In this document: in pieces, positions 1,180 through 17,365 of the stretch
Numbering within the stretch: position 1 is the first letter of the stretch
Layout: the number at the start of each line of letters is the position of its first letter
Assembly: GCA_038249055.1 (NCBI GenBank)
Contig: JBBRWS010000004.1
Span: 17,939-81,938, forward strand
Origin: Minisyncoccia bacterium
GTDB taxonomy: Bacteria; Patescibacteriota; Minisyncoccia; Phycocordibacterales; UBA9973
Direction: 5' to 3'
Length of the DNA stretch: 64,000 bases
Translations under genes and position numbers: made by a program
The notes under the pieces: model-generated
The model's input: the letters and a program-made list of their open reading frames with translations, nothing else
What the model was told of the DNA's origin: nothing
Databases searched by the model: none

Positions 1180-1224
1180 AAATTATAAAATAAGTTATAT
1201 TAAAATTTAATAAACTCTTCTCGA

Positions 1225-1306
1225 AATCCGCACATAATTTTCTGTTGAAAATTTGTTATGCTCAGACCGACGTCTTCCGCAATGCATTTCTCAAAGATTT
1301 ATTAAA
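1225..1306 (+). promoter_or_regulatory. conserved structured intergenic motif, copy 1 (hairpin AGAC-cgac-GTCT at 1264-1275), upstream of mnmA
   Basis: About 85% identical to 15170-15246. The flanks tgctc / tccgcaatg are conserved and the 4-bp stem changes compensatorily between copies. Confidence 0.5.
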
Positions 1307-1368
1307 TTTTAATTTCAAAAAGAGCTTATTTTTTGAAGTAATTACCTAACTTTACATATTATAGAATT

Positions 1369-2442
1369 ATGATTAAAAATAAAAAAACTATATTTGTTGG
1401 AGTATCAGGCGGAGTAGATTCGTCTGTTTCTGCTGCTATTTTAAAAAACCAAGGATATAATGTTGTTGGAGTTTTTATTCGTACTTGGACGCCAGATTTT
1501 ATAAAATGTACATGGCAGGATGAACGTCGTGATGCAATGAGGGTTTGTGCTCATTTGGGAATTCCATTTTTAGAATGTGATGCTGAAAATGAATATAAAA
1601 AAGGAGTTGCAGATTATATGATAGAAGAATACAAAAAAGGTAATACTCCTAATCCAGACGTAATGTGCAATAGAGAAGTAAAGTTTGGAGTTTTCTGGAA
1701 TTTTGCTAAAGAGCGGGGAGCTGATTATATTGCAACTGGTCATTATGCTATAAATAATTATGAATTAAAAATCAAGAATTTCGAATTAAATAAAGGGAAA
1801 GATGAATCTAAGGACCAATCATATTTTCTTTTGACACTTACTCAAAACGATTTGATTCACATTTTATTTCCAATTGGGCACTTAGAAAAAAAAGAAGTTC
1901 GTAAAATGGCTAAAAAATTTTGTATTCCGGTAGCAACCAAAAAAGATAGTCAAGGTGTTTGTTTTTTGGGTCCACTTGATATGAAAGATTTTTTAAGTCA
2001 TTATATTGAGACTAAAATCGGTAATGTTTTAAATAGTAATGGGGAAGTAATAGGAAGTCATAGTGGTGCAGTTTTTTTTACACTTGGAGAAAGACATGGA
2101 TTTAATCTCAATAAACTCGCTAAAAGTGACAAACCCCTATATGTAATATCAAAAGATGTTGAAAATAATACTATTACAGTCTCAGATGATATTTTAAATA
2201 ATAATACAAAATTAATTCAATATAATTTAATCAATACAAATTGGATAACTTTTATACCATTAGAAAATAAAATATATGATGCACAGATTCGATATCATGG
2301 AGAATTAATTAAATGTAAAATAGATATCCTAGAAAATAATAAAGCATTAATTAATTTTGATAAGGCAATATTAGTTTCAAAAGGTCAGTCAGTTGTGCTC
2401 TATGATAATGATGTTTGTCTTGGAGGTGGTGTAGTAATTTAA
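1369..2442 (+). CDS. mnmA: tRNA-specific 2-thiouridylase MnmA
   Basis: PP-loop SGGVDSSV is present, together with the C..KF...A...GADYIATGHYA motifs. Confidence 0.9.
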   Translation: MIKNKKTIFVGVSGGVDSSVSAAILKNQGYNVVGVFIRTWTPDFIKCTWQDERRDAMRVCAHLGIPFLECDAENEYKKGVADYMIEEYKKGNTPNPDVMCNREVKFGVFWNFAKERGADYIATGHYAINNYELKIKNFELNKGKDESKDQSYFLLTLTQNDLIHILFPIGHLEKKEVRKMAKKFCIPVATKKDSQGVCFLGPLDMKDFLSHYIETKIGNVLNSNGEVIGSHSGAVFFTLGERHGFNLNKLAKSDKPLYVISKDVENNTITVSDDILNNNTKLIQYNLINTNWITFIPLENKIYDAQIRYHGELIKCKIDILENNKALINFDKAILVSKGQSVVLYDNDVCLGGGVVI

Positions 2443-2511
2443 ATAATTTGATATATAGATTACTATAGAACAACGGCATTCGGACATTAAGTAAATTAAA
2501 GATTACTTTAT

Positions 2512-3030
2512 TTGCTTATGCTCCTTACTTGTTGTTATAATACAAATATGGAAAATATTTTTGATGCAGTAACAATTGATATTATGGTTCGTCTTTCAGT
2601 GGCATTATTATTGGGTATGATTATAGGTACTGAACGAGTTTGGGCACATAAAACAGCTGGGATGCGTACATACGCACTGGTTTCTATGGGGGCAGCACTA
2701 TTTATTATAATTTCAGAAATGGTAGGAATTAAATATATTAATATAGGTGTCTTTGATCCTACGAGAATAGCTGCTCAAGTTATAATGGGAGTTGGCTTTC
2801 TTGGTACTGGTTTGATTTTTTCTAAAGAATCAAAATTAATTGGTCTAACTACAGCTACTGGTTTATGGGTTTCAGCAGGTATTGGAATGGCATCTGGATT
2901 TAAACTCTACGGTGTTGCTATTATTGCGACAACATTCACTTTATTTATTTTTGTTGTTTTATGGTATTTAGAAGAGCAATTAAAAAAATCTAAATATTTT
3001 AAAAGCAGAGAGCCATTAGATAATATTTAA
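2512..3030 (+). CDS. MgtC/SapB family membrane protein (start probably at M-ENIFDAV, nt 2548)
   Basis: RLSVALLLGMIIGTERVWAHKTAGMRTYALVSMGAALF is the MgtC signature. Confidence 0.7.
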   Translation: MLMLLTCCYNTNMENIFDAVTIDIMVRLSVALLLGMIIGTERVWAHKTAGMRTYALVSMGAALFIIISEMVGIKYINIGVFDPTRIAAQVIMGVGFLGTGLIFSKESKLIGLTTATGLWVSAGIGMASGFKLYGVAIIATTFTLFIFVVLWYLEEQLKKSKYFKSREPLDNI

Positions 3031-3035
3031 AAAAA

Positions 3036-3066
3036 AGACCTTCATTCTAATGTGAAGGTCTTTTTA
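3036..3066 (+). terminator. rho-independent terminator after the MgtC-like gene
   Basis: Stem gaccttca / tgaaggtc followed by a T run. Confidence 0.75.
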
Positions 3067-3218
3067 AATTTAAGATTTTGTTGTACTATATAAAAATACG
3101 ACCCCACTTTAGTCTGCAATTGCGGAATACGGGGTTTAAATTATTAAAATTATAAAGATAAATTAAGTAGGTTTGGTTTGTATCTAAATGATAATAATCA
3201 TAACCTGCTTCTAATCGG

Positions 3219-5090
3219 ATGCAATCAAATGAAATTCGTGAAAAATTTCTCAAATTTTTTGAAAATAGAGAACATAAAATAATACCTTCAGCTTCTCTTA
3301 TTCCTGAAAATGATCCTTCAGTTCTTTTTAATACCGCAGGAATGCAACCCATAGTTCCTTATCTATTAGGACAGAAGCATCCTATGGGAACTCGCCTAGT
3401 TGATTCACAAAAATGTGTCAGAACTAATGATATTGATGAAGTTGGAGATAATCGACATCTTACTTTTTTTGAAATGCTTGGAAATTGGTCATTAGGAGAT
3501 TATTTTAAAGAGGATGCTATAAAATGGAGCTATGAATTTTTGACTGACAAAGAAGAAGGGCTTGGTCTAGATATAAATAGAATTTATGTAACTGTTTTTG
3601 AGGGAAATGAAGATGCCCCTAGAGACACTAATGCTGCAAGTATTTGGGTTAAATATTTACCTGAAAACCGAATATATTTTATGCCCGCAAAAAATAATTG
3701 GTGGAGTGCAGGGGATAATGGTCCTTGTGGTGCTGATACTGAAATATTTTATGACCCAAACGAGAAAGCTATTGGTGATATTACCCATGATGAATTTGTG
3801 AAAGCAGATGATGAAGGTATAATTATTGAAATATGGAATAATGTTTTTATGGAATATGAGAAAAAAAATGGAAAAGTTATTGGAAAACTTTTAAAACATA
3901 ATGTAGATACTGGAATGGGATTTGAAAGAATAACTATGGTTAAACAGGGGAAGAAAACTGTTTTTGAAACTGATTTATTTAGTTCTATAATTTCAAAAAT
4001 TGAAGAGTCTTCAGGAAAAAAATACGGAGAGAAAACAGATGAAGAGTATATTATAAATGGAGAGGAGTTTTTTGTGGATACTAGAAAAATGATGAGAATA
4101 GTAGCTGATCATTTACGTTCGAGCGTTTTTATAATAGCTGATGGTGGTACACCTTCTAATTCTGGAAGTGGTTATGTTATCAGACGTATACTTCGAAGAG
4201 TTATAAGATTTTCAGACAAATTGGAATTTAAAAAAGGTAGTCTATTGGAAATTATAGATTTAATAATTGAAAAATATAAAATAGCATATCCAGAAATAGA
4301 AAAAAATAAAAATTTTATTAAAAATGAAATTATAAATGAGGAATTAAAGTTTCGTCAAACACTTGAGAATGGGTTAAAGGTAATCGAAAAATCTATGACA
4401 GCAATGGAGGTAACTTCTACTGGTGAAAATATTTCTGGAAAAATTAAAGAAATTTTATCTGGTGAAGTTGCCTTTGATTTATATCAAAGTCATGGATTTC
4501 CTATTGAACTTACAATAGAAGAAGCGAAATCAAGAGGAATGTCCGTCGATTTGGATGCTTATAATATTAAAATGAAGGAGCATCAAATACTTTCTCAAAC
4601 TTCTTCTGCAGGTATGTTTAAAGGAGGTCTTTCTAATCATAGTGAAAAGACTATTCGTTTACATACTGCACATCACTTGCTTTTAGCTGCTCTTCAAGAA
4701 ATAGTAAGTAAAGATATAAAACAGAAAGGAAGTAATATTACCGAAGAACGTTTAAGAATAGATTTTACTTGTGATCATAAGCTAACTGATGAAGAAAAGA
4801 ATTCAGTCGAAAATTGGGTAAATGATAAAATAAATAGAAACCTAAATGTTATTCGTCGTGAAATGCCATTAGTAGAAGCAGAAAAGATAGGAGCTCAAAT
4901 GGAATTTGGTGCAAAATATCCTGAAATCGTTTCTATTTATTTTGTAGAAGATGAAAATGGCAATACAGTATCTAAAGAATTCTGCGGAGGACCTCATGTT
5001 TCAAAGACAAAAGAACTTGGTCGATTTAAGATTCAAAAAGAAGAAGCTAGTTCTCAAGGGGTACGACGAATTAAGGCAATTTTAGAATAA
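3219..5090 (+). CDS. alaS: alanyl-tRNA synthetase, short form (623 aa, no C-Ala domain)
   Basis: LFNTAGMQP and FEMLGNWSLGDYFK motifs; an editing-domain HxxxH (HTAHHLL) and FCGGPHV are present. Confidence 0.85.
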   Translation: MQSNEIREKFLKFFENREHKIIPSASLIPENDPSVLFNTAGMQPIVPYLLGQKHPMGTRLVDSQKCVRTNDIDEVGDNRHLTFFEMLGNWSLGDYFKEDAIKWSYEFLTDKEEGLGLDINRIYVTVFEGNEDAPRDTNAASIWVKYLPENRIYFMPAKNNWWSAGDNGPCGADTEIFYDPNEKAIGDITHDEFVKADDEGIIIEIWNNVFMEYEKKNGKVIGKLLKHNVDTGMGFERITMVKQGKKTVFETDLFSSIISKIEESSGKKYGEKTDEEYIINGEEFFVDTRKMMRIVADHLRSSVFIIADGGTPSNSGSGYVIRRILRRVIRFSDKLEFKKGSLLEIIDLIIEKYKIAYPEIEKNKNFIKNEIINEELKFRQTLENGLKVIEKSMTAMEVTSTGENISGKIKEILSGEVAFDLYQSHGFPIELTIEEAKSRGMSVDLDAYNIKMKEHQILSQTSSAGMFKGGLSNHSEKTIRLHTAHHLLLAALQEIVSKDIKQKGSNITEERLRIDFTCDHKLTDEEKNSVENWVNDKINRNLNVIRREMPLVEAEKIGAQMEFGAKYPEIVSIYFVEDENGNTVSKEFCGGPHVSKTKELGRFKIQKEEASSQGVRRIKAILE

Positions 5091-5132
5091 AATGATACAA
5101 TATAAATATATAAATTAATTTTTAAACACTAT

Positions 5133-5693
5133 ATGAAAAAAGATAAGGGTTTAGCACCATTAGTTATAGTTGCAATATTAGCAGGAGTTATAATTGTAGT
5201 TGTAGGTATTTTTTATTTATTAAAAAATAAAAATCCAAGTGAAAATATTTCTATTAATCCAGAAGTTCAAATTCCTGTAGAAAATAAACAGATAAAAAAA
5301 ATTGAGATTTGTAAAGAAGAATCACCTTCAACGGTTACACTTATTTCACCAAATGGAGGAGAAGTTTATAAGGCAGGGGAGAAAATATCTGTTAAATGGG
5401 AAAATTGTAATAATAAAAGTCCAGTTTCTATAACATTAATGAAACAAAAACCAGCAACCCTTTACACTGAAGATGAAAAAAATGTAGTTGCAGTATTTAA
5501 GTTGGATGAAGAAGTAAAAGAAGATCAAAATATTAGTCCTAGAGAAGTTACTTTGCCCGTCTTTGATCAAAATTTACAATCAGGAGAGTATTATTTTATT
5601 TCTTTATCTAGTAAAAGTGACAAAGAAAATGTAGGGCCTAGTTATAATCTTAGAGATTATTCTGATAAATTATTCACAATTAATTTAAATTAA
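5133..5693 (+). CDS. hypothetical N-terminally membrane-anchored protein with a beta-sandwich-like extracellular domain
   Basis: An N-terminal TM helix, then GGEVYKAGEKISVKW-like repeat content. No recognisable enzyme motif. Confidence 0.45.
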   Translation: MKKDKGLAPLVIVAILAGVIIVVVGIFYLLKNKNPSENISINPEVQIPVENKQIKKIEICKEESPSTVTLISPNGGEVYKAGEKISVKWENCNNKSPVSITLMKQKPATLYTEDEKNVVAVFKLDEEVKEDQNISPREVTLPVFDQNLQSGEYYFISLSSKSDKENVGPSYNLRDYSDKLFTINLN

Positions 5694-5721
5694 AAAAATA
5701 AATACAAATATGTCTGAAATA

Positions 5722-5756
5722 AGCACTCCCTTATAGATATTATATGGGAGTGCTTT
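5722..5756 (+). terminator. terminator-like hairpin (agcactccc / gggagtgct)
   Basis: A 9-bp stem with a 14-nt loop and a weak T tail. Confidence 0.45.
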
Positions 5757-5761
5757 ACATA

Positions 5762-5790
5762 TTGACAATATGTGTTATTAATGATATACT
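5762..5790 (+). promoter_or_regulatory. sigma70-like promoter TTGACA-17-TATACT
   Basis: Near-consensus hexamers about 85 nt upstream of the 5877 CDS. Confidence 0.55.
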
Positions 5791-5876
5791 TAAACTAATG
5801 TAAATATTTCCTGTACCATTCTTGTAGTGAGATTGGAGGGATAAAAAAATTTTCTAATCATCTAAAACTTAAACAG

Positions 5877-6806
5877 ATGAAAAAGATTTTTGTATTGTTC
5901 GTTGTCATGGTTTTGTTAATCACAGTGCCTTCTTGTCAAAAAGAAGAAATCCTTATTAGTGACGTACAAATTGAGGCCATAAAGGCTCAATTGGTTGCTA
6001 CTCCAACTCTTTCAAAAGAAGAGGTTGAAACTGTATTGTCTAGTCAAAAACTTAAATCCGCTTCTCTTAACGAAGAAGAAACTCTGGTTCAGGTTTTAGA
6101 TTTGGATGAACGGACCTTCGAGGTGAACGATCAGTTTGCAATCAAAAATTTAGTTTATATGGAATTTGGGCAAAATGGTAATTTGTTAAAACTCATTACC
6201 ATCCGTCAAATATTCGATGTAAATAACGGTAACATTGATGTAAATTCATATTCAATTGAGTATGAAATCGGGTGTAGTTATTCAAGAAATTTCCAATTAG
6301 GTGTTCAAGGAAATGTAAATCAAATTACTTTCTTTTTACATTTTAAAAACGGAAAGCAACTTGCTTTTTATGGAAACGGGAATAATAATATTACACTCTT
6401 ACCAATTGCACGTGCAAGCTGGCAACTGCTTGTAAATTATTACGATAATATTTTACAACAGCAGTACTTAACTGATTTGATTAATTTCTATGATCAATCC
6501 AACGTTATAAATTTAAGATTAGAACTGAAAAGTAAGAATCTTAAGTCTACCGTTAAATTTGACCGAAATTTAATTGAAGGAGCATACAACGTTCAACTTG
6601 GTGGATTCGATGCATCTGGAAATTACAGGTATATGAGTTATCAAGTTATGTATGACTCGTCTATGCCGGAAAAAATTTCCTTTGAAGCATATTTTGACAT
6701 TCAAGATGTAAATATTTGTGGGACCAATGGTTGCTATGGATATTCTACCAAGGATTCAAAATACACTGTTTATAATGCAGATGGTACTATTTTGTACAGT
6801 CTGTAG
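5877..6806 (+). CDS. hypothetical secreted protein / lipoprotein
   Basis: Signal peptide MKKIFVLFVVMVLLITVPSC followed by a Cys. No catalytic motifs. Confidence 0.5.
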   Translation: MKKIFVLFVVMVLLITVPSCQKEEILISDVQIEAIKAQLVATPTLSKEEVETVLSSQKLKSASLNEEETLVQVLDLDERTFEVNDQFAIKNLVYMEFGQNGNLLKLITIRQIFDVNNGNIDVNSYSIEYEIGCSYSRNFQLGVQGNVNQITFFLHFKNGKQLAFYGNGNNNITLLPIARASWQLLVNYYDNILQQQYLTDLINFYDQSNVINLRLELKSKNLKSTVKFDRNLIEGAYNVQLGGFDASGNYRYMSYQVMYDSSMPEKISFEAYFDIQDVNICGTNGCYGYSTKDSKYTVYNADGTILYSL

Positions 6807-6855
6807 GATAGATTAACCCTCTAAATTTATCAAACAAAGTTTGGTAAATAATATA

Positions 6856-6890
6856 TAAAAAAGCCCGACTTGTTCGGTGCTTTTTTTTAT
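6856..6890 (+). terminator. putative terminator (imperfect GC stem plus T8)
   Basis: aagcccgacttgttcggtgcttttttttat. Confidence 0.45.
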
Positions 6891-6913
6891 ATTTATAGTA
6901 TAATGAACTCACT

Positions 6914-8098
6914 ATGGGATTTTTATTTTCATCACAAAAAAAAGAAAAGCTAATCGCTATTTTTGATATTGGTTCAGGAAGTGTTGGTGGTGCTATGGTT
7001 CGTATGCCAATAGATGGAAATGGTGTTCCCATAATAATAAAATCTGTTCGTGGTAATGAGATTAAGTTTCGTAAGGATTTTGACTTCAATTCATTATTGA
7101 AAGATATGACCTCATCACTTTATCTGACTGCAAATTCATTATATGAAAAAAAAATTGGTGCACCTGATGAAATATATTGTGTGATGGCTTCTCCTTGGTA
7201 TTTATTTGAAACAAAAATTATAAAAATGTCTAGAAATAATTCATTTATTTTTACTAAACGTTTAGCAAATGAATTAATTCAAAAAGAAATATCTAGTCTT
7301 ACTGAAATTTATAAAACTAAATATGGTACCTTAGAAGGTTCTCCGGAAATAATAGAACAAAATACAATAAAAGTAGCTTTAAATGGGTATAATATTAAAG
7401 ACCCAATTGGTAAAAAATGTAAATCACTTGAGATGGATATGTTGATATCTTTAGCACCAGAATTATGTCTCAATAAAATACGTGAGACTTTATCAAAAAT
7501 TTTTCATCACACAAGCGTTCGTTTTTCATCTTTCACAATGGCTACTTATTTAGCAATTAGGGATAAATACGTAAAGGACGATTCGTATTTGTTACTTGAT
7601 ATTAGTGGTGAGATTACTGATGTGGGAATAGTTTCAAAAGGTATTTTAAAGGCCGTGCTATCTTTTCCTTTTGGTAAGAAAACTTTTTTTAATCAAATTT
7701 GTTCTAAGTTAGATATTGAATTACGCGATGCAAAAGAATTATTCAAATTATATAGTAGTGATAATCTTTCTCCAGATTTTAAGAAAAAAGTAATACCCGT
7801 TTTTAAATCCATTGAAAATTCTTGGAATGAATCATTCCGTCAATGTATAGGTACACTACCAAGAACACTTTTTTTACCCGATACTATATTTTTAACAGCA
7901 GATAATGATATTAAAAATTGGTTTGCTGAAGTTCTTCGTAATGAGGAATTTATTCAACCAAAAGTTTTTGATAATAAGTTCACAGTTATAACAATAGAAG
8001 GACCTGAGTTTTTGAATATGTGTGATATTGATGGCGGAACTTGTGATCCTTTTATAATGATTGAAGCAATTTCTATAATGAGAAAAATGGGTAAGTAA
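6914..8098 (+). CDS. actin-like ATPase, FtsA/PilM family
   Basis: Phosphate-1 motif IAIFDIGSGSVGG and adenosine motif LLLDISGEITDVGIV...FPFG. Confidence 0.6.
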   Translation: MGFLFSSQKKEKLIAIFDIGSGSVGGAMVRMPIDGNGVPIIIKSVRGNEIKFRKDFDFNSLLKDMTSSLYLTANSLYEKKIGAPDEIYCVMASPWYLFETKIIKMSRNNSFIFTKRLANELIQKEISSLTEIYKTKYGTLEGSPEIIEQNTIKVALNGYNIKDPIGKKCKSLEMDMLISLAPELCLNKIRETLSKIFHHTSVRFSSFTMATYLAIRDKYVKDDSYLLLDISGEITDVGIVSKGILKAVLSFPFGKKTFFNQICSKLDIELRDAKELFKLYSSDNLSPDFKKKVIPVFKSIENSWNESFRQCIGTLPRTLFLPDTIFLTADNDIKNWFAEVLRNEEFIQPKVFDNKFTVITIEGPEFLNMCDIDGGTCDPFIMIEAISIMRKMGK

Positions 8099-8100
8099 TT

Positions 8101-9580: not shown

Positions 9581-9592
9581 AATCAAGCATTA

Positions 9593-9808: not shown

Positions 9809-9912
9809 CCTTGCTTATTTTATTAAATTAGTGTAATATGAAAAGACATATGCTTATGTAATAAAAATACAGGGTAAAAGCCCTATATTTTTCTTTAGCA
9901 TTTAGATGAAAT

Positions 9913-10023
9913 ATGAAAATCAAATCTGCAGTAAAAAAAATTTGTACAAAATGTAAACTGATCAAGCGAAGCGGTCATCTTCGTGTTATTTGTGATAATC
10001 CTAAGCATAAACAAAAACAATAA
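9913..10023 (+). CDS. rpmJ: 50S ribosomal protein L36 (36 aa; below the ORF-track size cutoff)
   Basis: Manual translation gives [36 protein letters not shown], with the zinc-ribbon Cys/His pattern of L36. Confidence 0.85.
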
Positions 10024-10029
10024 TTTTAT

Positions 10030-10410
10030 ATGAGAATTCTCGGTATAACTATTCCAAACAATAAACATCTAGACGTAGGATTAACTTGCCTTTATGGTAT
10101 AGGTATATCCCGTTCAAGAAAAATTTTAGATCAAGCTGGTATTGATAGAAATATCAAAGGAGATGCTTTAACTGTTGATCAAGAAAATACAATACGTAAA
10201 ATAATCGAAACTATGTCCATCGAAGGTACTTTAAAGCGTGAAGTTGCTTCTAACATAAAAAGATTAAAAGATATTAAAGCTTACAGAGGTGTAAGACATA
10301 TGCGACGTTTACCAGTAAATGGTCAAAGAACAAAGACTAATTCTCGCACAGTGAGAGGAAATGTTCGAAAGACTATGGGAAGTGGTAGAAGAAAAGCTGA
10401 AAAAACTTAG
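10030..10410 (+). CDS. rpsM: 30S ribosomal protein S13
   Basis: MRILGITIPNNKHLDVGLTCLYGIGISRSRKIL. Confidence 0.95.
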   Translation: MRILGITIPNNKHLDVGLTCLYGIGISRSRKILDQAGIDRNIKGDALTVDQENTIRKIIETMSIEGTLKREVASNIKRLKDIKAYRGVRHMRRLPVNGQRTKTNSRTVRGNVRKTMGSGRRKAEKT

Positions 10411-10420
10411 GATAATTTTA

Positions 10421-10474
10421 TAGTTTCTAGGTAGTAAACTTACTAGAAATTAGAAACTTATTACTAGAAACTAA
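10421..10474 (+). promoter_or_regulatory. CTAG-rich palindromic leader element (TTTCTAG-N12-CTAGAAA plus tagtttctag / ctagaaacta) between rpsM and rpsK
   Basis: The inverted repeats are visible directly in the sequence. Confidence 0.35.
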
Positions 10475-10482
10475 TTAAAAAT

Positions 10483-10932
10483 ATGGGAAAGATAAAAATT
10501 ATAACAAAAGAAGAAGATAAAAAGGAAGTTTTGGATAAAGTTCCAGAAGTAACACCTAAACCAGGTACAAAAGTTCCTAAGAAGAAGATTGTTTCAGGTA
10601 CTCTACACGTAGAGGCCACTTTTAATAATACAAAAATAGTCTTGTCAGATAAAGAAGGAAATACTTTATTTTGGACTTCAGCTGGAGCACTTGGATTCAA
10701 GGGAGCAAAAAAGGGTACACCTTTTGCTGCTTCAAAGGCAGGATCTGTAATAGGTGAAAAAGCTAAAGCACTTGGAATTAAAGAAGTAGATGTTAAAGTT
10801 AAAGGAGTAGGTAGTGGTCGTGAACCTACCATTCGTGCGTTTATGGCCTATGATATTGAAATTACAGGAGTAAACGACGTAACACCAGTTCCTCACAATG
10901 GTCCTAAACCTAAGAAGCCTCGTAGAGTATAA
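10483..10932 (+). CDS. rpsK: 30S ribosomal protein S11 (with a Lys-rich N-terminal extension)
   Basis: GTLHVEATFNNTKIVLSDKEGNTLFWTSAGALGFKGAKKGTPFAA. Confidence 0.95.
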   Translation: MGKIKIITKEEDKKEVLDKVPEVTPKPGTKVPKKKIVSGTLHVEATFNNTKIVLSDKEGNTLFWTSAGALGFKGAKKGTPFAASKAGSVIGEKAKALGIKEVDVKVKGVGSGREPTIRAFMAYDIEITGVNDVTPVPHNGPKPKKPRRV

Positions 10933-10938
10933 AAAATT

Positions 10939-11547
10939 ATGAAAACAGTTCAAATGTATAAAATTTGCAGAAGACTTGGCCCTGGAGTGTTTGAAAAATG
11001 TCAAACAACTAAGTTTGCTATGTCCGAAGCTCGTCATGCTAAAAATTCAAAAGGGAAGCGTCCTAAACCTCTTTCTGGTTATGCTACTCAATTTATTGAA
11101 AAGCAAAAAGTTCGTTTTATGTATGGTATCAGTGAACGTCAGTTCTCTAACTATATTAAAGAAGCTGTAGACCACAAGGGTTCTCCTGCAACTGAATATC
11201 TTTTTGAATTATTAGAAAATAGACTAGACAACGTTGCTTACAGACTTGGTTTAACTCATTCTCGTCGTCTTTCTCGTCAAATGGTTTCTCATGGTCATAT
11301 CATTGTTAATGGAAAAAAGACAACAGTAGCATCACAAAGAGTACAAGTTGGAGACATTATTTCTATCCGTGAAGGTAGTAAAAAAAGTGTTCTATTCGCA
11401 GATATGGTAAACAAAATGAAAGATTATACATGTCCAAACTGGTTAACATTTAATGCTGAATCTCTTTCTGGAAAAATTCAAGGCAAACCTAAAAACATTG
11501 AGGGATATATTGACCTCAACACAGTATTAGAGTTTTATAGTCGTTAG
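10939..11547 (+). CDS. rpsD: 30S ribosomal protein S4
   Basis: MKTVQMYKICRRLGPGVFEKCQTTKFA...GISERQFSNYIKEA. Confidence 0.95.
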   Translation: MKTVQMYKICRRLGPGVFEKCQTTKFAMSEARHAKNSKGKRPKPLSGYATQFIEKQKVRFMYGISERQFSNYIKEAVDHKGSPATEYLFELLENRLDNVAYRLGLTHSRRLSRQMVSHGHIIVNGKKTTVASQRVQVGDIISIREGSKKSVLFADMVNKMKDYTCPNWLTFNAESLSGKIQGKPKNIEGYIDLNTVLEFYSR

Positions 11548-11613
11548 ATTAGCTTATGGTTAATTTTTAATAAATAATTATGAAAGCTTCATGCTTTCCA
11601 ATATCATATAACT

Positions 11614-12591
11614 ATGTCTGATTTAAATATTATACTACCATCAAAATTATCTATTGTTTCTGAAGTAGGTACAAATGGTGTCTATGAAATAGATGGTCTT
11701 TATCCTGGGTATGGACATACTTTGGGTAATTCACTTCGACGTATTATTTTGTCATCTTTAACAGGAGCTGCTATTACATCAATTAAAATTGATGGAGTAG
11801 ATCATGAATTTTCAGTTATTGATGGTGTAAAAGAAGATGTTATAACGATTTTGCTTCATTTAAAGCAAGTTCGTTTTCGTTTAAATACTGATGAACCTCA
11901 AACTGTTAAACTTCAAGTAAAAGGACCTAAACTTATAACCGCAGGTGATATTGAAACTACAGGACAAGTTGAAATTTTAAATAATGATTTATATATTGCA
12001 GAAGTTACAGGTAAAAACGCTTTATCTATTGAAATGACAGTAGAAAAAGGTTTAGGTTTTATGCCAAAGGAAATGCACCAAAAGACTAAAAATGAAGTTG
12101 GTGTTATTTCTTTAGATGCAATATTTACACCAATTCGTCGTGTGTCTTATGAGGTAGAAAATATGCGCGTTGGAGATAAAACAAACCATAATCGTCTACG
12201 TATGACCATTGAAACAGATGGAACTTTAACACCACGTGAAGCTCTTGAAAAAGCTATCACTGTTATGGTAGAACAGTTACAAGCAATCGTTGGATTTACT
12301 GTCTCCCATAGAGTTATTGGTAAAGAAATAGAAAAAGAAGAGAAAAAAGATAAAAAAGAAGAAGTAGAAAAGGAAGAAACTAGTGAATTTACAGATATAC
12401 TTAAAACCAGAATTGATACCCTTGAATTATCTACTCGAACATTAAATTCTTTAACAGGTGCAAATATTAGAACAATAGGCGGAATTGCACGAAAAAAGAA
12501 GGAAGATTTATTAGAAATTGAAGGAATTGGAGATAAAGGTATTCAAGAAATCAAAAAAGTCCTTAGTGTTTATGGAATAACACTTAAATAA
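11614..12591 (+). CDS. rpoA: DNA-directed RNA polymerase alpha subunit
   Basis: GYGHTLGNSLRRIILSSLTGAAITSIKIDGV and a C-terminal domain are present. Confidence 0.95.
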   Translation: MSDLNIILPSKLSIVSEVGTNGVYEIDGLYPGYGHTLGNSLRRIILSSLTGAAITSIKIDGVDHEFSVIDGVKEDVITILLHLKQVRFRLNTDEPQTVKLQVKGPKLITAGDIETTGQVEILNNDLYIAEVTGKNALSIEMTVEKGLGFMPKEMHQKTKNEVGVISLDAIFTPIRRVSYEVENMRVGDKTNHNRLRMTIETDGTLTPREALEKAITVMVEQLQAIVGFTVSHRVIGKEIEKEEKKDKKEEVEKEETSEFTDILKTRIDTLELSTRTLNSLTGANIRTIGGIARKKKEDLLEIEGIGDKGIQEIKKVLSVYGITLK

Positions 12592-12618
12592 TTAGTAATT
12601 AGTAATAAGTAATAATAT

Positions 12619-12972
12619 ATGAGACACGGTAATAATGTACGAAAATTTGGAAGAAACAAGAATCAGCGCCACGCTCTGTTAAAGGGTCTTATGTTAGCGC
12701 TTATTGCTCATGGAAAGATACAAACTACAGAGGCTAAGGCTAAAGAGCTTCGTCCTTCTATTGAAAAGATGGTTACAAAGGCCAATATTGGTACATTAGC
12801 ATCTAGACGTTTAGTTATATCACGTTTGTATAACCTTACAGCTGAAGCAAATAAATTGATTGATGATATCGCACCAAAATACAAAGGCAGAACTGGTGGT
12901 TATACTCGCATTACCAAACTTCCACGTCGAGAGGGAGATGCAAGTAAAATGGCAATAATCGAATTTATATAA
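12619..12972 (+). CDS. rplQ: 50S ribosomal protein L17
   Basis: MRHGNNVRKFGRNKNQRHALLKGL. Confidence 0.95.
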   Translation: MRHGNNVRKFGRNKNQRHALLKGLMLALIAHGKIQTTEAKAKELRPSIEKMVTKANIGTLASRRLVISRLYNLTAEANKLIDDIAPKYKGRTGGYTRITKLPRREGDASKMAIIEFI

Positions 12973-12977
12973 TATTT

Positions 12978-13328
12978 ATGACTACTACACATACAATTGA
13001 TGCAGAAGGTAAGACATTGGGTTTTGTTGCAAGTGCAACAGCTAAAATTCTTATGGGCAAAAATTCTACGGACTATGTTCCAAACAAAGTTGCAGATGTT
13101 CTTGTTATTATCAAAAATGCTAGTAAAACAAAAACAACTGAACGCCGAATGAAAGATACTTTACACGAAACATATTCAGGACAACCAGGTGGTTTCAAAA
13201 CAAAAACAAACGAAAAGATTTTAGATACAAAAGGATGGAAGGGATTATATGAATTAGCTGTATACGGAATGCTTCCTTCAAACAAATTAAGACCACTAAT
13301 GATGAAGCGTTTAACAATAAAAGATTAA
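12978..13328 (+). CDS. rplM: 50S ribosomal protein L13 (short)
   Basis: MTTTHTIDAEGKTLGFVASATAKILMGK. Confidence 0.85.
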   Translation: MTTTHTIDAEGKTLGFVASATAKILMGKNSTDYVPNKVADVLVIIKNASKTKTTERRMKDTLHETYSGQPGGFKTKTNEKILDTKGWKGLYELAVYGMLPSNKLRPLMMKRLTIKD

Positions 13329-13336
13329 TAAATATC

Positions 13337-13747
13337 ATGGAAAAAAAATCAACAACAAAAGAATACTTTAGAGCCATCGGACGCCGCAAGACTGCTACCG
13401 CTGTTGTTCGTCTTTATAAAGCTGCAAAAAATACTTATTCTATAAATGGTAAAGATTTAACTGAATATTTTAAAACTGCTGATTTAAAAAAGATCGTAAC
13501 TTCTGCTTTTGAGACTGCAACTCCAGCTGAAAAATTTGAAGTTGTTGTAACAACTAAAGGAGGAGGAATTCATTCACAAGCTGAAGCAGTTCGTCATGGT
13601 ATTTCAAGAGCTTTAGTTCTTCAAGATGGAGAACTACGTGGAGTATTAAAGAAGGCAAAAATGCTTAAACGTGACCCCCGTGTTGTTGAAAGAAAGAAAT
13701 TCGGACTTAAAAAGGCTCGTAAGTCTCCACAATGGTCAAAACGTTAA
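13337..13747 (+). CDS. rpsI: 30S ribosomal protein S9
   Basis: FRAIGRRKTATAVVRLY...KKARKSPQWSKR. Confidence 0.95.
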   Translation: MEKKSTTKEYFRAIGRRKTATAVVRLYKAAKNTYSINGKDLTEYFKTADLKKIVTSAFETATPAEKFEVVVTTKGGGIHSQAEAVRHGISRALVLQDGELRGVLKKAKMLKRDPRVVERKKFGLKKARKSPQWSKR

Positions 13748-13754
13748 TATTGAT

Positions 13755-13777
13755 AAAAGCCCCATCTGGGGCTTTTT
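13755..13777 (+). terminator. rho-independent terminator after rpsI
   Basis: aaaagccccatctggggcttttt. Confidence 0.85.
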
Positions 13778-13803
13778 GATTATTAAATTTTACATTGTAT
13801 AAT
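13776..13803 (+). promoter_or_regulatory. sigma70-like promoter TTGATT-16-TATAAT upstream of grpE
   Basis: Read directly from the sequence. Confidence 0.55.
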
Positions 13804-13850
13804 ACTAGAATGTATAAAAATTTAAATTATTATTAATATAATAAAAAAAT

Positions 13851-14420
13851 ATGAATGATGAAGAAATAAAAAATGAAGATATTGATGATGTAACTTTTGT
13901 TGAAAGCACAGAAGATGGTGAAGCTTTACCTTCAAAAGATATAGTAAAGAAATTAAGAGATGATTTAAAACTTTGTCGCAAAGAGAAAGAAGATTATTTA
14001 GTTGGATGGCAGAGAGCCAAAGCAGATTATATAAATCTTCAAAAAGAACTTGATTTAGCGAGGGTTAATATTTCAATTCTAACTAAACAGAAAATGGTAG
14101 AAAAAATACTCCCAGCCTTAGATAGTTTTGAAATGGCATTTTCCAATAAAGAACATTGGGAAAGTTTAGATAAAGACTGGAGATTAGGAATAGAATCTAT
14201 TTATCAACAATTTGTTTCCGGTTTAAGTATTTCGGGTGTGGAAAAAATTGATGAAATTAATGTAAATTTTGATCCTAATATTCATCAGTCTATAAGTATT
14301 ATAGAAACAAACGAAGAATCAAAAGACCATACAATAGAGAAAGTTCTTCAAGTTGGATATAAAATAGGTGATAGAGTTATTCGTCCCGCAAAAGTAACTA
14401 TTTACGAATACAAGAATTAA
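13851..14420 (+). CDS. grpE: nucleotide exchange factor GrpE
   Basis: A coiled-coil N-terminus and the conserved core ...RAKADYINLQKELD...KILPALDSFEMAF. Confidence 0.9.
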   Translation: MNDEEIKNEDIDDVTFVESTEDGEALPSKDIVKKLRDDLKLCRKEKEDYLVGWQRAKADYINLQKELDLARVNISILTKQKMVEKILPALDSFEMAFSNKEHWESLDKDWRLGIESIYQQFVSGLSISGVEKIDEINVNFDPNIHQSISIIETNEESKDHTIEKVLQVGYKIGDRVIRPAKVTIYEYKN

Positions 14421-14450
14421 TTTTTAGTTGCTAGTTTATAGTGACTAGAA

Positions 14451-14486
14451 AAATACACATATCAGCCATGGCTGATATGTGTATTT
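14451..14486. terminator. bidirectional terminator (36-bp perfect palindrome) between grpE and the convergent PaaX-like gene
   Basis: aaatacacatatcagccatggctgatatgtgtattt. Confidence 0.8.
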
Positions 14487-15043
14487 TAGTTATTTTTCTT
14501 AAAACAAAGTGATAAAAATTCTTTTTTAGTTAGTTCATCAATTTTATCTGTAACTATTATCATCATTTCCGTGGTAAGATTTAAATCATTTTTTATATTT
14601 GTAAATAAATTTTCATATGGATACATAGAAATCCAAACGGAATTTTTAATACAAATAAACCAAGCTTTTTTTAGTAGATAACGTAATGCTTCACGTTCAC
14701 TTTTTCTATCTTCAGGAAGATCAAGAATAATGATTCTCCAATATCCATCCCAATCATTAGATATAAGTGTAGTATCATTATCTATTGCATTGTTATTAAC
14801 TCGCTTTTTACCTTCATTAGACAATCTATAGTAAGGCTGATAATCAGACTGGAAACACTCCACAAGGCCATCAGTGGTTAGATTCTTTATTGAGCGGGAT
14901 ATTGCGTATTCAGGCTTATTTTTGCTTGTATGGAGGTCTTTTATAGTTTTTTCAACCTCTTTTTTGAGAAAATCAAAAGAAACTGCCTTTTTGCCGGTTA
15001 AAGTTTTGAATATTGCCCTTTGAATTGAGGTCTTTTGAGCCAT
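14486..15043 (-). CDS. PaaX-family winged-helix transcriptional regulator, short form
   Basis: A wHTH (AISRSIKNLTTDGLVE) followed by WDGYWRIIILDLPEDRK...LRYLLKK, which matches the PaaX WDGKWLLLL middle-domain signature. Confidence 0.5.
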   Translation of the reverse strand: MAQKTSIQRAIFKTLTGKKAVSFDFLKKEVEKTIKDLHTSKNKPEYAISRSIKNLTTDGLVECFQSDYQPYYRLSNEGKKRVNNNAIDNDTTLISNDWDGYWRIIILDLPEDRKSEREALRYLLKKAWFICIKNSVWISMYPYENLFTNIKNDLNLTTEMMIIVTDKIDELTKKEFLSLCFKKNN

Positions 15044-15169
15044 GTTGTGTATTATATCACTATTCGTGTATTATACAATAGTTTTGCGGTCACGAAATAC
15101 TTGTCAAAATAAAAAGGTAGGTGTATACTATATGCGTGTTTTGGATTTTTAAAAATATAAAATAGCTTT

Positions 15170-15246
15170 TTTCAAAATACGCACATAATTTTCTACTGAA
15201 AATTTGTTATGCTCGGGCCGTCGCCCTCCGCAATGTATTTTTCAAA
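15170..15246 (+). promoter_or_regulatory. conserved structured intergenic motif, copy 2 (hairpin GGGC-cgtc-GCCC at 15215-15226), upstream of dnaK
   Basis: See copy 1. The stem shows compensatory base changes relative to copy 1. Confidence 0.5.
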
Positions 15247-15364
15247 AACTATTTTATTTTTTTTAAAAATTTATAAATTTATTATCAAAACATTATTAAT
15301 TATCTGGTTTAGTTTTTATTTCTAGTCACTAGAAACTAACTACTAGAACCTAATCAAAAAATAT

Positions 15365-17257
15365 ATGAGTAAAATTATAGGTATAGACTTGGGTACAACA
15401 AATAGTGCATTCGCAATTATAGAAGGTGGTCAACCAAAAATATTAGAAAATATTGAAGGAGCTCGTACAACACCTTCTGTTGTTACTGTTACAAAAAATG
15501 GTGATCGTATGGTTGGTTTACTTGCTAAGCGTCAAGCCATAACGAATCCAGAAAATACTGTTTATGGTATTAAGCGTTTCATTGGTCACTTGTTTGATGA
15601 CCCTGAAATACAGAAGGATGACAAAATGACTCCTTATAAAATTCAAAAAGGAACTACAGGTGGAGTTGAAGTAAAACTTGGAGAACAATGGTTACGACCA
15701 GAAGAAATATCCGCAAAGATTTTAGGAAAACTTAAAGCAGATGCAGAAGCAAAACTAGGAGAAAAAATTACAGAAGCAGTTATTACTGTTCCTGCTTATT
15801 TTAACGATGCTCAAAGAAAAGCAACTAAAGATGCAGGTATTATCGCAGGGTTGGATGTTAAACGTATTATAAATGAACCAACTGCAGCAGCTCTTGCTTA
15901 TGGTTTTAATACAAAGAAAAATGAAAAAATAGTTGTTTATGACTTTGGGGGTGGAACTTTTGATGTCTCTGTTCTTGAAGTTGGAGATGATGTTATTGAA
16001 GTTAAATCAACTGACGGTGACTCACACATGGGAGGTGAAGATATAGATCAAAAAATAGTTAAATGGATTGCCGATGAATACAGAAAAGAATCAGGTATTG
16101 ATGTAACAAAAGATGTTCTTGCCCTTCAGCGTCTTAAAGAAGCAGCTGAAAAAGCTAAGCACGAACTTTCTACAACAATGGAATCAGAAATAAATATTCC
16201 GTTTATTACATCTGATGCTTCTGGTCCAAAACATTTACTTTTGAAAATGACACGTGCAACTCTCGAATCATTAACTGAGGAATATGTTACTCGCTCAATT
16301 GAAATAACAAAGAGAGCTGTTGAAGCTTCACCATTTAAAATGAATGAAATTAATGAAATCATTTTAGTCGGTGGTCAAACCAGAATGCCAGCCATCGTTG
16401 AAGCTGTAAAGAAGTTATTCGGTAAAGAACCAAATCGTTCTATAAATCCCGATGAAGTTGTTGCTCTTGGTGCCGCTGTTCAAGCTGGAGTTTTACAAGG
16501 TGATGTTCGTGATGTTTTACTTCTAGATGTTATTCCATTATCACTTGGTATTGAAACACTAGGAGGAGTTTCTACAAAGCTTGTAGAGCGCAATACAACT
16601 ATTCCTAGTTCAAAATCTCAGACATTTTCTACTGCTGCTGACAATCAGACTGCTGTAGATATTCATATAACTCAAGGAGAAAGACCAATGGCCTCAGATA
16701 ATAAATCCCTCGGTAAATTTATTTTAGATGGAATTCCACCAGCACCACGAGGTATGCCACAAATTGAAGTTACTTTTGATGTTGATGCAAATGGTATATT
16801 GAATGTAAAAGCAAAAGATAAAGCTTCAGGCAAAGAACAATCAATCCGTATTGAAGCAAGTTCAGGACTAACTGAGGCTGATATAAAGAAAATGAGAGAA
16901 GAAGCTGAACTTCATGCAGATGAAGATGCAAAGAAAAAAGAATTAGCTGATGAAAAAAATACTGCAGAAATGATGATATTCTCTGCTGAAAAATCATTAA
17001 AAGAATATGGTGACAAAGTTGCTCCAGAAATTAAAACTTCAGTTGAAGAAAAATTAGCAGCAGTTAGAACAGCCAAAGAAGGCTCAGATATTTCTGTTAT
17101 AAAAGCAGCTATCGAAGCACTTTCAACGGAACTTTCAAAAATTGGGGAAGCTATGGCAAAAGAAGCACCTGCTGCTGGTCAAGCAGAAACAACTACTGAA
17201 CCTCAAAGTGAAGAAATAAAAGATGCAGAAGTAAAAGAAGGAGGAGAACAAAAATAA
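15365..17257 (+). CDS. dnaK: molecular chaperone DnaK (Hsp70)
   Basis: [18 protein letters not shown] and the other canonical Hsp70 motifs are present. Confidence 0.97.
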
Positions 17258-17325
17258 AACAAGAATAAATATTTATAGACTTCTAAAAATAGCTTCTCTC
17301 TTCGGGTACGAAAATTTTTTGCTAA

Positions 17326-17365
17326 AAATTTTCTGAAATACTCGCGCCGACGCGCTCGCAACTTC
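17326..17365 (+). promoter_or_regulatory. conserved structured intergenic motif, copy 3, short (hairpin GCGC-cgac-GCGC at 17344-17355), upstream of dnaJ
   Basis: It shares the aattttctg...gaaa...ctc[stem-cgac-stem]tc(c)gcaa architecture with copies 1 and 2. Confidence 0.4.

Follow-up and report, generated by a model that had tools for sequence, protein, structure and literature searches.

A previously undescribed family of dispersed, structured palindromic repeats in Paceibacteria

REPs occur in hundreds of copies and are simple imperfect hairpins of 20–40 nt that share a 5′ GTAG-type motif and a stem conserved in sequence; REP/RAYT elements are thought to move as folded single strands. REPs are not known to lie inside genes. 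Small repeats can cluster, insert into one another and invert, and are cleaved by RNase III when transcribed (PMC10969869). Rickettsia palindromic elements (RPEs) insert in frame and are predicted to form stable hairpins in transcripts (PMC10969869). The TIGR-Tas systems of candidate-phyla bacteria comprise tandem arrays of 36-nt units with box C/D motifs beside a tas gene (PMC12045711).

We analyzed a window of 64,000 nt from a Minisyncoccia bacterium (contig JBBRWS010000004.1, assembly GCA_038249055.1) and found that three of its sequences are members of a previously undescribed family of dispersed, structured palindromic repeats of Paceibacteria, about 90–130 bp long. A close parallel is with RPEs, which are likewise ~100–150 bp palindromic repeats of a small reduced genome, fall into several related families, have no known transposase, and combine intergenic copies with in-frame copies in housekeeping genes whose frame is kept open (PMC10969869), here tsaD of L009 and dus of L021. 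This resemblance is an analogy only: the lineage is unrelated, the apex of the Paceibacteria element is a conserved three-way junction with two covarying hairpins, and its copies are mostly extragenic and directly behind stop codons, with two in frame among ~40. Bacterial MITEs (Correia, ERIC, BOX/RUP/SPRITE) share its small size, lack of coding capacity, multiple copies and AT-rich insertion contexts, a long stem-loop in the transcript, clustering, apparent nesting and possible in-place inversion, and possible side effects as an RNase III target or terminator-like structure (PMC10969869). Apparently unlike MITEs, the element has inverted repeats (the arms of its closing stem, P1) without fixed sequence, only short end motifs being conserved, and its core is conserved across very different base compositions. 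Nor did we detect a target-site duplication (no consistent direct repeats flank the outermost stems, and the dus sites with and without a copy have diverged too far for a junction to be defined) or find a parent insertion sequence when neighbors of copies were annotated. Like the REP/BIME/REPIN elements of proteobacteria, the family consists mostly of extragenic palindromes at gene 3′ ends, with two types alternating in inverted orientation across short linkers, but its fold is branched, ~90–130 nt long and built of stems of variable sequence. As in integron attC sites, a single-strand fold would be what is recognized, and variable stems accompany few conserved unpaired or terminal bases; unlike attC, the element lacks a GTTRRRY/RYYYAAC boundary, has core housekeeping neighbors rather than cassettes, occurs in mixed orientation and has no integrase nearby. 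TIGR-Tas guide arrays were considered and rejected because copies are dispersed or paired rather than arrayed; among annotated neighbor genes no Pfam match suggests a Tas protein.

A preliminary description of this DNA had reported an intergenic element upstream of mnmA, dnaK and dnaJ, in three copies that each carry a 4-bp stem. All three copies and their stems were confirmed, as was the similarity of copies 1 and 2 (~81% identity across the 88-nt model span). Their features, with the closing stem P1 bearing the hairpins P2 and P3, are as follows.

1202..1310, + strand: copy 1, subtype A, whole hairpin from the direct repeat; model match 1213–1300, 92.6 bits; outer P1 arms AAAATTTAATAAA / TTTATTAAATTTT
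1229..1284, + strand: conserved core of copy 1, from alignment, pair counts and fold, in the order CGCACAT, P2, TTATGCTC, P3, TCCGCAATG
1236–1242 / loop 1243–1246 / 1247–1253: P2 of copy 1, extended by ACA 1232–1234 paired with TGT 1254–1256, with bulged T1235
1264–1275: P3 of copy 1, AGAC-cgac-GTCT (AGAC 1264–1267, loop CGAC, GTCT 1272–1275), extended by TGC 1259–1261 paired with GCA 1279–1281
15101..15129, + strand: sigma-70-like dnaK promoter, TTGTCA-17-TATACT; context, upstream of copy 2 and outside the element
15146..15269, + strand: copy 2, subtype A, whole hairpin, its P1 extended and AT-rich; model match 15164–15251, 98.5 bits
15180–15235: core of copy 2
15215–15226: P3 of copy 2, GGGC-cgtc-GCCC (GGGC 15215–15218, loop CGTC, GCCC 15223–15226)
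17291..17380, + strand: copy 3, subtype B; subtype-A model 27.5 bits, subtype-B/C model 80.6 bits
17310–17319 / TGCT / 17324–17333: P2 of copy 3
17344–17355: P3 of copy 3, GCGC-cgac-GCGC (GCGC 17344–17347, loop CGAC, GCGC 17352–17355)

The top direct repeat of the window aligns 1202–1310 with 15153–15261 (109 nt, 77% identity), and copy 3 is a divergent relative of both. The motif pattern first suggested for the element matches the window twice (0.02 matches expected by chance), as does a longer pattern (0.00 expected). Covariance-model building, also suggested at the outset, gave two models that, run without filters, recover only the three copies in the window: one (the subtype-A model) built from 14 copies, whose remaining matches are plain hairpins and which finds copy 3 at an E value of about 1e-5, and a second representing the divergent subtypes (B/C). 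Element density is low by both models, with all three copies in the first 18 kb of the 64 kb. Copy 1 is flanked by an rRNA-methyltransferase-like gene, whose stop codon lies 23 nt before it, and by mnmA, 59 nt beyond it; copy 3, whose 3′ half is partly decayed, begins 34 nt beyond the dnaK stop codon and has a more complete orthologue with identical P3 (L048). At or above family gathering thresholds, the sole Rfam 15 match in the window is a tRNA at 60111–60192; nothing overlaps the three copies at E up to 10, and other copies gave only matches of the miRNA-precursor hairpin type, far below threshold.

The 4-bp hairpin proved to be one arm (P3) of a larger three-way junction, in which P1 is a long closing stem of 17–35 bp, P2 consists of 3 bp, a bulged U and 7 bp, and P3 of 3 bp, an internal loop and 4 bp capped by a CGNC loop. 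Subtype-A junction sequences (CGCACAU, UUGUUAUGCUC and UCCGCAAUG) are nearly invariant, which is partly a selection effect because the pattern scans fixed 20 junction bases. The compensatory changes originally seen in the 4-bp stem are real and general: among 41 distinct copies from Paceibacterota and Nomurabacteria-type metagenome genomes, both partners vary in 4/4 pairs, with 98% of cells paired. All helices covary, supporting the earlier argument that a folded structure, and not just the sequence, is under constraint. In 14 pattern-selected copies 88% of cells are paired, against 71% in shuffles and 35–50% in slid controls, and 23 pairs change on both sides; in the 41 distinct copies, whose alignment had been fitted to the model's structure, 88.5% are paired against 64.7% and 32/35 pairs change on both sides, with one-side-only changes in P2 and P3 very rare relative to both-side changes. 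The helices show no strand asymmetry and almost no G-U intermediates (P2b has 283 Watson-Crick cells, 0 G-U and 0 A-C; P2a, P3a and P3b combined have 7 G-U vs 11 A-C), a substitution pattern that reads as DNA-like. A G-U pair is conserved at the top of P1, replaced by A-U in L046 and L002. The two "direct-repeat half-sites" once thought to flank the hairpin are not independent elements: the first combines junction sequence with the 5′ strand of P2, the second combines it with the 3′ strand of P1, and the second does not follow a compensatory P2 change from AATTTTC to AAAATTC. P1 arms vary in sequence between copies yet remain complementary. Between the end motifs (CGCTCG...CTCGCT) and the core, the P1 arm measures 16–18 nt in eight G+C-richer copies (17 nt in 6/8); AT-rich copies have end motifs AAATAGCTCTT...AAGACTATTT. 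Whole hairpins are 92–124 nt or longer and fall into subtypes A, B and intermediates.

Several copies per genome occur in Paceibacterota, Nomurabacteria and Taylorbacteria genomes and in metagenome contigs. Their neighbor genes are unrelated and include a comF-like gene, queA, maf, pilM, dsbD, dus, a gatA-like amidase gene, map, fpg, S7, comEC, sod, uvrD and ksgA. The preliminary description had held that a dispersed repeat, found in unrelated intergenic regions and inside genes, would count against its proposal; the many neighbors and the insertions into tsaD and dus are of exactly this kind. Content also turns over between close relatives, as judged in genomes with 90–97% identical DnaK and conserved gene order. 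The dnaK-leader copy is missing in 3/4 relatives examined, including relatives at 94–97% DnaK identity with the same gene order. Depending on the genome, the spacer between dnaK and dnaJ contains subtype B, subtype A, a convergent pair or an unrelated plain hairpin. Behind the comF-like gene, L003 has a subtype-B copy where L006 has one of subtype A with identical P3, and dus is preceded by a subtype-A copy in L017 and again in L021, in opposite orientations. Two copies fall in frame within genes: tsaD of L009 contains an extra segment of ~40 residues exactly where an antisense copy falls (between residues 191 and 194 of PDB entry 8iey), and dus of L021 contains, with the copy in sense orientation, a 31-residue insert relative to its 69%-identical L017 orthologue.

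The best reading of these observations, which we hold with moderate confidence, is a palindromic repeat that moves, or once moved, and to which 3′ untranslated regions are tolerant. In its favor count the covarying fold, the dispersal among unrelated genes, the placement just past stop codons, the turnover and same-site swaps between relatives, the convergent A/B pairs, the in-frame insertions, the DNA-like substitution pattern and the comparable behavior of known small repeats. Each copy, as single-stranded DNA or RNA, can fold into the three-way junction, with P1 bearing P2 and P3 joined by the nearly invariant junctions; some trans-acting enzyme would recognize the conserved core and flanking end motifs, and the family may spread, or may once have spread, through a single-stranded DNA intermediate and be homogenized at the DNA level. 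Copies would persist chiefly at sites where they are nearly harmless, just past stop codons in 3′ untranslated or intercistronic regions and in leaders, and rarely in frame in protein surface loops. Effects on the expression of dnaK, dnaJ or mnmA, if any, would be incidental and could come from the long double-stranded stem of the transcript, which might act as an RNase III target or 3′ stabilizer. Counting against a mobile repeat, no transposase occurs among annotated neighbors of copies (the single pair of copies that flanks a gene encloses comEC), and neither a fixed-sequence terminal inverted repeat nor a target-site duplication was found in the family.

A possible but rather less probable alternative is a host-functional structured RNA of 3′ untranslated, intercistronic and leader regions, whose junction would bind a Paceibacteria protein or ligand while P1 directs processing, 3′-end protection or attenuation, dispersal then reflecting many genes that share one module. 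Covarying helices with nearly invariant junctions are the usual signature of functional RNA. Position favors it as well: of 35 subtype-A copies for which an upstream gene was called, 26 share its orientation, and 21 of these 26 begin 11–117 nt past the stop codon, mostly 11–46 nt. This bias and the near-constant P1 arm of the G+C-richer copies would also suit a transcript RNA read by a protein, and so count against a mobile repeat. The subtype-A core is essentially identical in genomes of 33–48% G+C, and the orthologous copies L013 and L016 are far better conserved than the surrounding spacer and differ by three compensatory P3 pairs; purifying selection on a functional molecule explains these patterns no less well than a selfish repeat does. 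Copy 2 is very probably transcribed, because it lies just downstream of a conserved dnaK promoter, and the G-U atop P1, with its A-U replacements, would suit RNA. However, five intact copies are antisense to both neighbors (L013, L016, L046, L003 and L045), 3/5 of them also 18–23 nt beyond a stop codon, and every convergent A/B pair includes one antisense copy. In-frame copies in tsaD (antisense) and dus (sense), presence/absence or subtype swaps among close relatives, helices in which G-U is not in excess of A-C, the lack of a matching Rfam family and the lack of a consistent class of neighbor gene also speak against a host RNA. The element is distinct from the terminator: L050 has a copy after the grpE stop codon and, beyond that copy, a separate canonical terminator. 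A cis-regulatory RNA or riboswitch was rejected, given positions tied to the preceding stop codon, mixed orientation and unrelated downstream genes.

An improbable alternative is a host signal acting at the DNA level through a hairpin or cruciform fold (a recombinase, topoisomerase, nucleoid-protein, DNA-uptake or recombination site), kept behind genes since it is tolerated there, in the manner of REP/BIME or uptake sequences. Such a signal would account for copies in either orientation behind stop codons and for strictly Watson-Crick covariation with symmetric strands. Subtypes A and B often form convergent pairs ~40 nt apart, whose flanking modules repeat as if nested, and this alternation of inverted pairs recalls BIME/REPIN organization. 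Several neighbors are DNA-uptake or repair genes (comF-like, comEC, pilM, recJ, uvrD, fpg and RNase H), a post hoc impression that would also lean this way. Yet three copies per 64 kb, all in the first 18 kb, is a sparse density for it, double-stranded-DNA-binding proteins conserve sequence and not pairing, in-frame genic copies and rapid turnover are ill-suited to an essential host signal, and no partner protein was identified.

We give very little credence to independent sibling sRNA genes, each with its own promoter and with P1 as terminator. The copies are multi-copy, conserved, structured and intergenic, and the AAAATAG...CTATTTT at the P1 base of AT-rich copies resembles an A-tract/U-tract terminator, but no promoter-like motif occurs at a fixed upstream distance (the apparent TAnAnn motifs by G+C-richer copies are stop codons of upstream genes, 2–6 nt from the element end), a U-tract is missing from the G+C-richer copies, and in-frame copies lie inside genes.

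The dnaK region itself had suggested a heat-shock cis-element or promoter-proximal stem-loop. The predicted dnaK transcription start lies only a few bases ahead of copy 2, which would thus be the 5′ end of the dnaK leader, the window indeed holds no CIRCE (TTAGCACTC-N9-GAGTGCTAA gives 0 matches with ≤3 mismatches allowed), and L050 carries four copies around grpE-dnaK-dnaJ. The likeness to a CIRCE/HrcA operator is limited to this one copy's position upstream of dnaK: the element is dispersed, and upstream of grpE there is no hrcA, the genes there being S13, S11, S4, rpoA, L17, L13 and S9. What is conserved upstream of dnaK is the promoter, in five related genomes, and an adjoining stretch, palindromic in the closest relative (L047); both precede copy 2 without belonging to it and stand beside a divergent gene for a PaaX_M-domain (PaaX-like regulator) protein. 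Copy 2 ends 96 nt (widest P1 stem) or 114 nt (model span) before the dnaK start codon and leaves the ribosome-binding site uncovered, and copies 1 and 3 end 59–121 nt ahead of the next start codon. A 5′-UTR RNA thermometer (ROSE, fourU) was rejected, since none of the three copies sequesters a ribosome-binding site or start codon. A heat-shock operator or thermosensing, regulatory 5′ stem-loop common to dnaK, dnaJ and mnmA is refuted by the distribution of copies, most of which lie behind unrelated genes, and by dnaK leaders without a copy in the 94–97% relatives, and we assign it almost no probability.

Tentatively, the junction may be the recognition module of a new system in Paceibacteria, either as a structured 3′-UTR RNA or as a folded single-stranded DNA site. 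If the RNA version is true, a lineage-specific protein would read a new class of 3′-UTR RNAs for processing, stabilization or a catalytic role. If the single-stranded DNA version is true, a recombinase or transposase of its own would constitute a new mechanism of transposition, able to insert in frame into genes.

The three copies near mnmA, dnaK and dnaJ belong to a dispersed family of palindromic repeats, and the best-supported reading is that this family is mobile now or was formerly. The preliminary description placed copies 1, 2 and 3 at 1225–1306, 15170–15246 and 17326–17365, with central hairpin stems AGAC/GTCT, GGGC/GCCC and GCGC/GCGC, and all three sequences and stems are as it gave them. 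The likeness it saw between copies 1 and 2 is the strongest direct repeat in the window (1202–1310 versus 15153–15261, 109 nt, 77% identical), and identity comes to ~81% over the 88 nt used for modelling. Its search pattern matches exactly copies 1 and 2 in this window of ~30% G+C, against 0.02 matches expected by chance, and both of our covariance models (R1 and R2), run unfiltered, return copies 1–3 as the only family members present. Copy 1 is surrounded by an rRNA-methyltransferase-like gene and mnmA, and copies 2 and 3 by grpE, a divergent PaaX-like regulator gene, dnaK and dnaJ. Rfam searches of the window and two other copies, at gathering thresholds and at E up to 10, gave nothing relevant and no family for the copies, and literature searches found no described candidate-phyla repeat or RNA motif matching the family. 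A second direct repeat (30154–30316 versus 37301–37469, ~160 nt, 82–83% identity, 7.15 kb apart) is unrelated to the hairpin family and may represent paralogous gene segments.

Folding of either strand suggests that the element goes beyond the 4-bp hairpin to a three-way junction, in which a long closing stem (P1) encloses two hairpin arms (P2 and P3).

Architecture of the element in aligned copies
P1: closing stem of at least 16–18 bp, often 25–35 bp
5′ junction: CGCACAU between P1 and P2
P2: 3 bp, a bulged U, 7 bp (P2b) and a 4-nt loop
Junction between P2 and P3: UUGUUAUGCUC
P3: 3 bp, an internal loop, 4 bp and a CGNC loop
Junction after P3: UCCGCAAUG, followed by the 3′ strand of P1

The compensatory change first proposed for the 4-bp stem holds throughout this fold. 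In an alignment of 14 copies, 88% of cells are paired, versus 71% in shuffles and 35–50% with slid partners, and 23 pairs show two-sided changes. Among the 41 distinct copies of the covariance-model set, whose alignment was fitted to the model, 88.5% are paired versus 64.7%, and 32/35 pairs have changed on both sides. Divergent subtypes (B and intermediates) have the same architecture with different junction sequences, and they give compensation even in short helices that are invariant within subtype A: ACA/UGU to GGA/UCC, GAA/UUC or AAA/UUU, and UGC/GCA to UGU/ACA. The invariance of subtype-A junctions is itself partly imposed, because the patterns of both collection scans specified 20 junction bases. 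Subtype A includes copies 1 and 2, and copy 3 is a subtype-B member with a decayed 3′ half; a genome whose DnaK is 95% identical carries a more complete orthologue of copy 3 with P3 unchanged.

The family is dispersed across related candidate-phyla genomes. A scan of species-representative genomes, using a pattern in which the junctions alone were specified and the hairpin was free, yielded 18 loci. Approximately 13 of these, up to three per genome, lie in Paceibacterota, Nomurabacteria, Taylorbacteria and metagenome genomes labelled “Saccharibacteria”, a label that is doubtful for some genomes since one such locus shares its gene order with a Nomurabacteria locus; the other ~4 lie in unrelated bacteria and have no such fold. 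The same pattern matched 27 metagenome contigs, although many metagenome loci are near-duplicates and locus counts therefore overstate independent events. Among viral contigs it produced one chance match, with no fold.

Neighbouring genes are functionally incoherent. Copies elsewhere adjoin comF-like, queA, maf, pilM, dsbD, dus, gatA-like amidase, map and fpg genes, as well as genes for S7, comEC, sod, recJ, RNase H, uvrD and ksgA. Position relative to the upstream gene is more regular: with genes called as simple open reading frames, 26/35 subtype-A copies that have a called upstream gene are co-oriented with it, and 21 of the 26 start 11–117 nt past its stop codon, mostly 11–46 nt. The end motif of G+C-richer copies begins only 2–6 nt past the stop codon, and spacing to the next gene is far more variable than spacing to the preceding stop. 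Five copies are antisense to both neighbours (3/5 also lie 18–23 nt past a stop codon), and four, including copy 2, lie between divergent genes. Subtype A and B copies form convergent pairs ~40 nt apart at seven loci and a divergent pair at one further locus; modules flanking these pairs repeat both directly and invertedly, as if nested.

Some neighbours recur in kind. Genes for tRNA modification lie beside or around copies in the window (mnmA, 1369–2442) and at other loci (queA, L008:1948–3009; dus, L017:3451–4443 and L021:75–1280; tsaD, L009:543–1865), and DNA-uptake or repair genes (comF-like, comEC, pilM, recJ, uvrD, fpg) lie beside several others; an excess near these two classes is a post hoc impression from ~20 contexts. 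At L014:5785–7068 (also L039) three family members stand in a row downstream of the ribosomal protein S7 gene, within the ~2.5-kb stretch preceding the next large gene, and are overlapped by a 363-residue reading frame that has no Pfam match and is probably spurious. Locus L013 has a long G+C-rich inverted repeat (1800–1917; CCCGTTAGAAGCCGCGGTCGC ... GACCGCGACCTGCTTCTAACGGG) just before the start of a 911-residue HerA/TrwB-like ATPase gene, where L016 has a subtype-B copy.

Copies also occur within genes. A high-scoring subtype-A copy lies antisense within an uninterrupted 440-residue tsaD frame (L009:1002–1130). The encoded TsaD can be aligned with a solved TsaD structure on either side of ~40 extra residues, which fall between residues 191 and 194 of that structure, and the stretch of DNA coding for these extra residues coincides exactly with the element, CGCTCG...CTCGCT ends included. 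Similarly, an intermediate-subtype copy lies in sense orientation within dus (L021:921–1028); compared with an orthologue that is 69% identical and has no copy, the gene product gains 31 residues. Both insertions are in frame and leave the reading frame open. Upstream of dus, both genomes carry a subtype-A copy in opposite orientations, and the regions were too diverged for a useful alignment bearing on in-place inversion. Behind the comF-like gene, one genome has a subtype-B copy and another a subtype-A copy at the same site, and P3 is identical in the two.

Six observations (dispersal, the existence of subtypes, inverted pairing, turnover at orthologous sites, insertions in frame and incoherent neighbours) together argue for a palindromic repeat family that is or once was mobile. 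Rickettsia palindromic elements and bacterial MITEs are its analogues, and a review covers their comparable behaviours (PMC10969869). A mobilising enzyme would recognise the conserved core together with end motifs at a fixed distance from it; no such enzyme, fixed terminal repeat or target duplication was found among annotated neighbours or in the folded flanks of copies.

The main rival casts the element as an RNA module with a host function, recognised by a conserved protein within 3′ untranslated regions. This accords with a core that is extremely conserved among genomes spanning 33–48% G+C, the orientation bias of the copies and the 16–18-nt P1 arm of G+C-richer copies. The substitution pattern, however, is unusual for RNA. 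P2b has 283 Watson–Crick cells and neither G-U nor A-C, and the remaining short helices contain no more G-U (7) than A-C (11). Changes on one side of a pair are very rare beside changes on both sides, adjacent pairs flip together (TT/AA to AA/TT), and in orthologous copies whose flanks are ~85–90% identical three of four P3 pairs differ, all of them compensated. Stepwise RNA evolution, though possible, explains this less well than does a palindrome that is kept or corrected as DNA, or frequent conversion among copies. As to strand, a conserved G-U at the top of P1, which becomes A-U in two copies, and co-orientation with upstream genes argue for the plus strand of the preliminary description. 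On the opposite strand the conserved mismatches would be tandem G-A pairs, an option weakened by other subtypes having UGU rather than UCC on the 3′ side of the P3 internal loop; G-U versus A-C counts show no strand asymmetry. The mobile-repeat and RNA-module readings are not mutually exclusive.

The preliminary description raised the possibility of a heat-shock cis-element or 5′ stem-loop shared by mnmA, dnaK and dnaJ. The window DnaK gave no record in an exact look-up; a homologue search with it returned a 100% identical entry and graded relatives named Paceibacterota or Nomurabacteria, and four relatives (loci L047–L050, DnaK 90–97% identical) share the order grpE, PaaX-like gene (opposite strand), dnaK, dnaJ.

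Features of the chaperone region (window coordinates)
14450–14487: nearly perfect palindrome of 17 bp that includes A- and T-tracts, AAAATACACATATCAGCCATGGCTGATATGTGTATTTT, in the spacer where grpE and the PaaX-like gene converge; probably a bidirectional terminator
14486–15043, minus strand: divergent PaaX_M-domain gene, between grpE and dnaK in every relative
15101–15129: dnaK promoter-like site TTGTCA-17-TATACT, common to five genomes (the window and L047–L050)
15319–15349: palindrome TTTCTAGT-c-ACTAGAAA, then repeated CTAGAAC, in the dnaK leader downstream of copy 2; kept in L047 (97%), absent from L048 and L049
17388–17408 and 17421–17443: small hairpins ACATTTTG-atta-CAAAATGT and GTTATGGGT-ctct-ACCCATAAC, outside the family, in the dnaK–dnaJ spacer after copy 3

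Lying just downstream of the promoter, copy 2 would be expected to make up the 5′ end of the leader of dnaK. The 97%, 95% and 94% relatives have no copy in this leader, and only the 90% relative carries one, of a divergent subtype. Between dnaK and dnaJ, the window and the 95% relative have a subtype-B copy, the 94% relative has one of subtype A, and the 90% relative has a convergent pair; in the 97% relative this spacer contains an unrelated hairpin, long, G+C-rich and with a T-run. Such variability, together with unrelated neighbours elsewhere, shows that the element is not a heat-shock signal.

A different feature of this region is conserved. The stretch directly before the dnaK promoter (15083–15129 region; TTTTGCGGTCACGAAA in the window, TTTCGCGGTCGCGAAA in L047) is conserved in all five genomes compared (window and L047–L050; alignment A6, columns ~53–102), forming the palindrome TTTCGCG-gtc-GCGAAA in L047, the closest relative, and an imperfect one in the window and other relatives. 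With the promoter and the PaaX_M gene, it looks like a candidate operator–repressor pair for the chaperone genes. A CIRCE search of the window found none, in agreement with the lack of a CIRCE-like inverted repeat upstream of dnaK noted previously, and no hrcA lies upstream of grpE; neither was seen in this lineage's chaperone region. Locus L047 has two PaaX_M-domain genes between grpE and dnaK (926–2029) and, in its dnaK leader, a 91-residue reading frame where the window has copy 2.

Other candidate functions were also considered. A terminator role is disfavoured because A/U tracts at the stem base occur in AT-rich copies and not in G+C-richer ones, and because L050 carries, after the grpE stop codon, a copy followed by a separate canonical terminator, at a place where the window and L048 have only plain palindromic terminators, that of L048 being a different palindrome. 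The L050 arrangement indicates that the element is a passenger of 3′ untranslated regions and not the terminator itself. A promoter within or just upstream of the element was rejected for lack of a consistent −35/−10 pair, TAnAnn motifs there being upstream stop codons. By inspection, a peptide-coding core (ATGCTC...) conflicts with P3 changes that are non-conservative in the implied codons and with a stop position that varies among copies. The flank AGCUCUUUUCAAAAU, which resembles the boxA antitermination motif, is missing from L023 and from G+C-richer copies; the 428-residue gene enclosed by an A...B pair in L023, considered as a composite transposon, is comEC; and identity with TIGR-Tas arrays was also considered and rejected.

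The genomes of candidate-phyla bacteria are among the smallest and most streamlined known, which makes the survival there of a multi-copy structured repeat unexpected. This one turns over among close relatives and even sits in essential genes such as tsaD and dus. Its signature is unusually clean: the branched core is conserved, the helices vary by double substitution only, and the end motifs are defined. This offers a tractable handle on either a new mobility mechanism or a new RNA–protein system in unculturable organisms. In practical terms, the repeat is a source of false “regulatory motifs” before genes such as dnaK, and two covariance models now exist that can be used to mask or census it.
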